64,000 nt of DNA from assembly GCA_963702845.1 (NCBI GenBank), contig OY969763.1, positions 1,536,001-1,600,000 on the forward strand, read 5' to 3'. Under the pieces are notes generated by a model. The model saw only the letters and a list, made by a program, of their open reading frames with translations. It did no database searches and was not told where the DNA came from. Position 1 is the stretch's first letter. Each line of letters opens with the position of its first letter. This document shows, piece after piece, positions 63,772 to 64,000 of the stretch. The stretch comes from an uncultured Verrucomicrobiae bacterium (GTDB taxonomy: Bacteria > Verrucomicrobiota > Verrucomicrobiia > Limisphaerales > Palsa-1400). Both the position numbers and the translations under genes were made by a program.

Positions 63772-63789
63772 GCTTAACGAGAAAGTCAG
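63772..63789 (-). other. Half attC site interrupted by the IS110-family element
   Basis: Minus strand CTGACTTTCTC-GTTAAGC matches the 3' end of the other attC sites (e.g. CTGACCTTTAC-GTTAGAA), then similarity stops abruptly. Confidence 0.7.
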
Positions 63790-64000
63790 ATGGGTGTTTG
63801 ATCTCGGTGTTACGCGGGTTATCGGCGTGTGCCGACCTATCCGCAATATGAGAGTCCCGACGGCGGGTCGGGGCTGATTCAGCATCAATGAAAGAAACCA
63901 AACACCCATGAATAAAATCGTGCATTACCTCGGTCTGGACGTCCACAAAGAAACTATTGCCGTGGCCATCGCGCCGCAGGATACCACCGAGGTCCGTTCC
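63790..64000 (+). mobile_element. IS110-family insertion sequence, left part: structured non-coding region plus transposase start at 63908
   Basis: MNKIVHYLGLDVHKETIAVAIAPQDTTEVRS matches the DEDD RuvC-like N-terminus (GLDVHK) of IS110 recombinases. Confidence 0.85.

Follow-up and report, generated by a model that had tools for sequence, protein, structure and literature searches.

We consider it likely that the right-hand edge of the window (the whole 64,000-nt stretch analysed here, G000:C1:1536001-1600000) holds the left end of an IS1111-type insertion sequence lying in an attC-like repeat, with a structured 5´ leader that acts in translation of the recombinase and a target-selecting RNA located 3´ of the gene. 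Comparison of the copies in the genome with related elements fixed the boundaries and the family of the element, revealed compensatory changes in both RNAs and uncovered an in-register complementarity, across relatives, between a loop of the 3´ RNA and the DNA flanking the insertion. The features are collected in Table 1.

Table 1. Features of the element and its target site. Coordinates above 64000 (marked extended) are genome positions minus 1,536,000.
Feature	Position	Strand	Remarks
Left part of the interrupted attC-like repeat, GTGTAAGCGGCC	63749..63760	+	R´ side, cassette orientation
Outer left terminus, TAGACC	63761..63766	+	same in A, B and C, whose left flanks differ
Left subterminal inverted repeat, ATATGGCT	63767..63774	+	8 bp, 6 nt from the left end
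Hairpin P0 (UGGCUU/AAGUCA)	63770..63788	+	in the minimum-energy fold; holds the 'CTGAC box'
Closing stem P1, 5´ arm, ATGGGTGTTTG	63790..63800	+	perfect 11-bp inverted repeat
Hairpin P2	63814..63844	+	GCGGGT/ATCCGC outer stem, TCGGC/GCCGA inner stem
Hairpin P3	63854..63874	+	sequence variable
Closing stem P1, 3´ arm, CAAACACCCAT	63899..63909	+	ends within the start codon
IS110-family DEDD transposase gene, first 31 codons	63908..64000	+	ends beyond the window at 65089
Structured 3´ RNA, ~220 nt, candidate bridge/seek RNA	65251-65469 (extended)		GTGGATTGATG to CAGTCCAT
3´ RNA internal loop, 5´ strand, GUGAGUGUUAA	65297-65307 (extended)		
3´ RNA internal loop, 3´ strand, GUGCCUAGAGA	65335-65345 (extended)		
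Right part of the interrupted attC-like repeat	65479-65564 (extended)		ends in GTTAGGC

The open frame MNKIVHYLGLDVHK..., with its ATG at 63908-63910, leaves the window on the + strand. A sequence-only reading of the window had assigned it to the IS110 family, and the protein of the intact copy elsewhere in the genome (copy B, P0001) bears this out, with matches to PF01548 (DEDD_Tnp_IS110; 3.6e-18, residues 8-154), PF02371 (Transposase_20; 6.4e-19, residues 225-297) and the NCBIfam model NF033542, 'IS110 family RNA-guided transposase' (237.5 bits; cut-off 140). The element is a member of the IS110 family, with a DEDD transposase. The IS1111 group is defined by subterminal inverted repeats of 7-17 bp and a guide downstream of the gene (PMC11208160, PMC11187229). 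The architecture here is that of this group: subterminal repeats are present, the non-coding regions of copy B measure 147 nt 5´ and 472 nt 3´ of the gene, the longer, downstream one contains a structured RNA, and a TTGACA box is located near the right end. Related loci were collected from genome contigs (18 loci, mostly from Verrucomicrobia MAGs, the closest at 73-83% identity) and from metagenome contigs (80 loci), and a table was drawn up of 50 full-length elements that carry both end motifs. Among plasmid sequences, the closest named relatives belong to the ISSfr2, ISSso6 and ISEc45 families (47-53% identity). In the metatranscriptome run X1 (share 0.10), one 270-nt contig with 95-99% identity fell wholly inside the transposase gene.

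Three copies of the element were found in the genome, the window's (A) and two others (B and C). The sequence that they have in common begins at TAGACCATATGGCTTAAC (63761), after three unrelated left flanks, and in an alignment of 11 related loci from other genomes, with unrelated upstream DNA, the shared sequence likewise starts at TAGACC. All 50 of the tabulated full-length relatives carry the left terminus (T/C/G)AGAC[C/A], a count that is partly circular because these elements were selected by a regex on their ends; the alignments of related loci (11 for the left end, five for the right) are separate from that table and free of this circularity. The sequence-only reading had the attC site cut right after a CTGAC box, at about 63789, which places the boundary ~29 nt off. 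Since the start at 63761 is common to the copies and relatives, GGCTTAAC...GTCAG (63771-63789), composed of the left subterminal repeat and a small hairpin, belongs to the element and not to the attC site. At the other end, copies B and C and five relatives extend to ...CTTGACA-N13-AGCCATATCAAC, with the TTGACA box 19 nt from the right end in B and C and the partner of the subterminal repeat, AGCCATAT, 4 nt from it. The subterminal repeats of relatives reach 12-13 bp (for example, ATGGCTTAACGC / GCGTTAAGCCAT). The IS1111 group is further characterised by a circular intermediate with a junction promoter and by insertion that leaves no target duplication; no direct repeat was found in the flanks of B and C.

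Copy A, which runs from 63761 to about 65478, lacks ~73 nt of the right end in comparison with B and C and, with them, the right terminus, the right repeat and the TTGACA box. TCAG is present on both sides of the lost segment, a sign that microhomology may have mediated the deletion. The gene is interrupted by a premature TGA at codon 309 (64832-64834) in A, and likewise in C, while the gene of B is intact and encodes 393 aa. The window's copy is therefore a fossil, given the nonsense codon and the missing right end. Also deleted in A is a small right-end hairpin, CCGT-GAAAAA-ACGG, followed by a T run on the opposite strand, which looked like a candidate terminator against read-in. Two orphan, decayed left-end fragments were observed as well, one at genome positions 1159666-1159761 with the leader up to hairpin P2 and one at 1644564-1644647 with the leader and ~15 codons of the gene.

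The flanks of copy A, GTGTAAGCGGCC and TCAGACGG...GTTAGGC, are two parts of one attC-like repeat; rejoined, they form an imperfect palindrome running GTGTAAG...GTTAGGC, so that the second attC half, expected beyond the element from the sequence-only reading, is indeed there. The element entered at the R´ (3´) end in cassette orientation, 5-7 nt into the core. The cassette-like ORFs between 60331 and 63729 are all on the - strand, with the transposase gene, as had been noted, antisense to them on the + strand, and they are separated by imperfect palindromes that read GCCGAAC-spacer-GCTCAGC...GTTAGGC on the + strand. Neighbouring repeats start with GCCGAAC, GGCGAAC or CCTAAC and continue, after a spacer of 5-7 nt, with GCTCAGC, and GCCTAAC (- strand) overlaps the stop codon of the preceding - strand ORF. 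The repeats at 61071-61167 and 63001-63093 (93-97 nt) fold with paired ends. These are the properties of attC sites, in which the inverse core sites RYYYAAC...GTTRRRY flank an imperfect palindrome of about 60-140 nt that follows a co-oriented ORF. A profile search gave four attC-like repeats at E<=0.01, in 61078-63093, with more visible by eye, and ~27 genome-wide in small scattered clusters. The attC-like repeats in the window are at 61045-61167, 61503-61600, 62180-62270, 62555-62625 and 63001-63093.

In the whole genome, a single contig of 6.03 Mb, the best match to the integron integrase model TIGR02249 scored 85.9 bits, well below the cut-off of 265. A TIGR02249 match at genome positions 1686720-1687166 falls inside a 458-aa ORF (1686153-1687529) that was considered as an integron integrase and set aside at 19.6 bits against the model. 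With no integrase above the cut-off, we refer to the repeats as attC-like; their clusters look like attC arrays without an integrase. Insertion of the element in an attC-like site is supported. Copy B is also inside an attC-like repeat, whereas copy C has flanks that resemble attC only in part; a paralogous attC-like repeat is present at genome positions 2292984-2293059. Close paralogues of the cassette beside copy B (in its left flank, at about 2836286-2836400 of the genome) occur at other genomic positions.

Upstream of the gene, the perfect inverted repeat P1 that overlaps the ATG and the two hairpins enclosed by it were seen directly in the sequence, as in the sequence-only reading, and P1, P2 and P3 are all part of the RNA fold of 63761-63915 (-59.3 kcal/mol, z = -4.22; none of 200 shuffles was as good). 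The leader fold is kept across 24 members of the subfamily, with 28 pairs, eight of which have compensatory changes. Among these members 97.9% of the cells are paired, compared to 33-46% when the partners are slid, and the covariation score of 0.178, compared to 0.083 in shuffles, was reached in 0 of 500. P2, with the conserved sequence CGYGGGTTAYC...GACCTATCCRC, has compensatory changes at four of its 11 pairs (UA<->CG in 6/24 members, CG<->GC/UA in 8/24, GC<->CG/AU in 3/24 and UA<->CG in 2/24), while all four modelled pairs of P3 vary, three of them on both sides. By eye, a hairpin at the position of P0 is found in relatives with changed arms (CTTAAC/GTTAAG, CTTCGC/GCGAAG). Several leader pairs are G-U, all on the sense strand, and one in P2 is invariant in 24/24 members, which argues that the structure forms on this strand.

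The 9-bp core of P1, GGGTGTTTG/CAAACACCC, is nearly invariant in the subfamily. In the wider clade, 57 of 67 leaders have a perfect stem, 8 bp or longer, that borders on or runs into the ATG, compared to a mean stem length of 1.2 bp for shuffled sequences, and more than ten different P1 sequences occur (for example, GGCCTGCCTCC/GGAGGCAGGCC, GACCTACCTCCT/AGGAGGTAGGTC and GAGCTTGCCTCC/GGAGGCAAGCTC). The masked arm contains GGAGG in most relatives of this wider clade; in the window's subfamily, no Shine-Dalgarno-like sequence was found in the 3´ arm. A leader of the same plan was observed in an ISSso6-family element, L110 (Shigella dysenteriae plasmid NZ_CP026809.1, 9054-11330), in which the closing stem GCTGGCC/GGCCAGC abuts the ATG and encloses the hairpin CGCGGGTTAAC...CAGAGCCGCA; the right end of L110 has TTGACA and a 12-bp subterminal repeat. 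The shared plan suggests that the leader is widespread in the clade. Searches of the three copies, leaders and 3´ regions included, gave no Rfam match at E<=1, and full-text literature searches, with the listed papers judged by titles and the starts of abstracts, turned up no account of such a leader for IS1111 elements.

Downstream of the gene, the 3´ RNA has a fold common to 18 sequences, with 57 pairs, 13 of them with compensatory changes that are mostly in the 25-bp closing stem and in one variable hairpin; all five measures exceeded 500 of 500 shuffles. An 11x11 internal loop is located between two predicted CCUC/GAGG stems, which are invariant in the subfamily. The 3´ strand of the loop is (G)CC-UAGAG in nearly all members and matches the last base of the left flank in 39/41 elements, the last two in 20/41 and the first four bases of the left end in 36/41. 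The 5´ strand ends in (C/U)GUUA, of which GUU can pair with the AAC of the right end and the C with a G at +1 of the right flank (38/41). The variable bases ahead of this motif are complementary, in register, to the right flank from +2 onwards in many relatives (loop/flank CGAAC/GTTCG, UAAGGC/GCCTTG, GAGGUC/GACCT and GGAC/GTCC).

Across 40 dereplicated elements, the run of contiguous Watson-Crick pairs from +1 had a mean of 2.17 for cognate combinations of loop and flank compared to 1.30 for non-cognate ones, and the cognate sum was reached in 0 of 20,000 permutations, figures that are to be read with a register picked by eye on the same data, with eight of the 50 full-length elements left out for want of fit to the loop pattern and with relatives that are related elements in related repeats and not independent. 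When the elements were grouped into 15 guide classes, the observed sum was 32.6 compared to 19.7 +/- 2.5, again reached in 0 of 20,000. The signal was present at register 0 only and was lost on sliding by 1 or 2. In the window's own lineage the match is poor, with 0 contiguous Watson-Crick pairs for copy B and 2 for copy C; the runs of the 14-member subfamily class are 0-3, and a fit to the predicted GACAAC is seen for the consensus flank G-W-C-A-A-A alone. An unanchored word test of the 3´ region against the right flank, which is underpowered, gave 202 compared to a permuted mean of 193.8 (reached in 322 of 3000), and contiguous 7-mer matches between the flanks and either non-coding region formed no pattern. 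The 3´ region of copy B does share seven words of at least 6 nt with the donor junction (CATATCA, ATCAAC, GTTGAT, AGAGAGC, AGAGAG, TAAGCC and GCTCTC).

Two other pairings of the 3´ RNA were considered and rejected. Pairing of the loop sequence CGUUAAG with the left end CTTAACG did not stand, by eye, since relatives with other left ends (for example, L038) keep the same loop. Covariation of CAUAUCA with the right end was dropped as well: L014, L022 and L030 have CAUCUCA and their right ends differ, with CATATCAAC kept in L014 and L022 and CATGTCAAC in L030. At E<=1e-10, the 3´ RNA was not found in 80 relatives of the same genus (2), family (28) or order (50). Helix 7 of the 3´ RNA in copy B (corresponding to 65394-65411 in A) is a different hairpin, 27 nt compared to 18 nt, in an element that is otherwise ~98-99% identical, a local replacement that keeps the stem.

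We propose that an IS1111-group element has inserted antisense to the cassettes at the core position given above and would be transcribed from a promoter formed at the junction of its ends; a scan found no sigma-70-like promoter in the integrated copy, and the -10 supplied by the junction (TAGACC) matches the consensus poorly. The 147 nt from the left terminus to the ATG would then be the conserved structured 5´ leader of the transposase mRNA and not a guide. By analogy with ISPpu9, the leader is best read as a translational gate that masks the start region: P1 is predicted to pair a stretch ~110 nt upstream with the 9-11 nt that directly precede and enter the start codon (where relatives have the GGAGG ribosome-binding site), which most likely keeps translation of the recombinase low. 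The 3´ arm lies next to the start codon or ribosome-binding site irrespective of its sequence, and this points to a translational logic. P2 may offer a protein or an RNA a point of attachment through which the block is lifted or reinforced. Target selection would most likely fall to the ~220-nt 3´ structure, the 5´ strand of its loop pairing with the top strand of the right flank together with the last bases of the right end, and its 3´ strand repeating the C or CC of the left flank together with the first four bases of the left end.

The conservation of P2 also bears on an alternative, which we regard as unlikely, that the leader is a second RNA module, for example a half that binds the recombinase or recognises the donor, kept from an IS110-type ancestor and acting with the 3´ RNA, the masking of the start codon being a by-product or a coupling of translation to assembly of the RNA-protein complex. 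P2 is kept in sequence and in structure across relatives with 45-80% protein identity and in ISSso6, and the conservation of its sequence suggests a binding site rather than a mere stem. By eye, many relatives carry CGTTGA(TA) after P2 or P3, the reverse complement of the right end TATCAAC/G. Passages of the literature report 26 elements with two long non-coding regions (Siddiquee et al.) and propose that the guide has moved between ends in evolution (Durrant et al.). Against this alternative, the group that includes the window's copy is without the CGTTGATA motif, the internal loops of the leader, at only 2-3 nt, are too small for guides, and the leader of copy B has no word of at least 6 nt in common with the donor junction on either strand, in contrast to the seven in its 3´ region.

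It is quite improbable that the stems act as DNA, the left-end repeats being sites of recombinase recognition or folding on single-stranded or cruciform DNA. The element does have subterminal repeats and targets repeats that form hairpins, and covariation alone cannot separate RNA from single-stranded DNA of the same strand. However, the frequent G-U (G-T) pairs, all on the sense strand and one of them invariant, the constant position of the P1 3´ arm next to the start codon or ribosome-binding site, and the right end, which has no matching structure, all argue against a role as DNA.

Least probable is the proposal of the sequence-only reading that the 120 nt upstream of the gene are an attC-programmed bridge/seek RNA, as in the IS110-group element IS621; the leader is structured and conserved and would be the first part of any transcript from the junction promoter, where IS110-group guides lie in the accounts cited below, but the architecture is of the IS1111 type, the leader is without large internal loops, its matches to the flanks of A, B and C are 6-mers at chance level, no cognate signal with the right flanks was found family-wide (observed 155, permuted mean 158) and the in-register guide-like loop sits in the 3´ region. 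An IS110-group bridge RNA has two internal loops complementary to target and donor, and no such loops were found in the leader. Words identical to the left flank showed a weak excess in the leaders (reached in 74 of 3000 permutations), which, as one of eight tests, was not counted. Overall, the leader does not look like a guide. The same reading had suggested that the fold may also mask the ATG, and this part is retained: in the modelled structure the closing stem covers the ATG, while the guide function assigned to the fold is not upheld.

The translational leader and the 3´ guide that we favor can be compared with several known systems. The IS1111-attC group (ISPa21, ISPst6, ISKpn4 and ISPa25) is likewise described as site-specific in attC and antisense to the cassettes (PMC3001079), and its seekRNA has been mapped downstream of the transposase gene (PMC11187229), where the candidate 3´ RNA is found here. 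By eye, in the unaligned sequences of Supplementary Table 1, the non-coding region of ISKpn4 shares GGYCGATAA...hairpin...GAAC and ATAT...CAACCG with the element. The described group inserts near the 5´ end of attC (PMC3001079), in contrast to the 3´ (R´) end here, and the terminal sequences differ. Also in contrast to that group, the host here is related to Verrucomicrobia MAGs and has no integrase above the cut-off. ISEc11, ISPa11 and ISAzs32, with a 3´ bridge/seek RNA, are similar in their subterminal repeats, longer downstream region and TTGACA near the right end, as well as in a structured right-end RNA with the top-strand match 5´ of the bottom-strand match, the order described for IS1111 seekRNAs (PMC11187229). 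The left non-coding region of the element, at 147 nt, is unusually long for the IS1111 group and has its own conserved fold.

For such a leader the closest parallel is ISPpu9 of Pseudomonas putida, whose long, structured 5´-UTR is described as hiding the ribosome-binding site and limiting translation of the transposase (PMC8450116, PMC12288879). ISPpu9 differs in that it is described as an IS110-group element without subterminal repeats and with its guide in the same upstream region, and as having its own promoter and an antisense RNA (PMC12288879). The proposed loop resembles the bridge RNA of IS621 (IS110 group), in which, according to PMC13626964, the loop strands pair with opposite DNA strands on either side of the crossover and loop bases also match the partner DNA after exchange. 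Unlike in IS621, the loop is downstream of the gene and the order of its strands is reversed, the left flank is matched over just 1-3 nt, and a second, simple donor loop was not found.

Outside the window, the genome has six copies of a second IS110-family element, 31-32% identical to the studied transposase (genome 442537-443379, 1729344-1730183, 2186569-2187408, 3666324-3667163, 4071648-4072487 and 4307677-4308519). At least three of these (c3, c4 and c5) are in the same kind of attC-like repeat, near the other arm, with right flanks of the form ...GCGC/catcGTTAGGC, and two paralogues of the cassette neighbouring copy B have been hit by this family (left flanks of c1 and c2). It thus seems that a single repeat family in this genome is the target of two unrelated RNA-guided IS lineages.

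There is a small chance that a large IS1111-type clade formed by this element, its soil and freshwater metagenome relatives and ISSso6 uses two RNAs, a 3´ guide and an engaged 5´ leader. If so, the clade would be split or intermediate between elements with an upstream guide (IS110) and those with a downstream guide (IS1111), and translation of the recombinase would be coupled to assembly of the guide complex, with P1-P2-P3 engaged by the recombinase or by the 3´ RNA.

For the window, the outcome is a fossil copy, and a role as translational leader is most likely for the stretch that had been proposed as an upstream guide. Disruption of cassette arrays by attC-homing IS1111-type elements is known, and a decayed copy is a known kind of event; mildly novel is the conserved start-masking 5´ leader with its sequence-conserved hairpin P2. 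The guide RNAs of IS1111 elements are of interest as programmable recombination tools, and the loop offers a candidate for a readable guide rule, by which the bases 5´ of the conserved CGUU in the 3´ internal loop would pair with the right flank. The case adds a lineage, known from Verrucomicrobia-related genomes and many metagenomes, whose entry point in attC-like repeats is at the end opposite to that used by the classical group.
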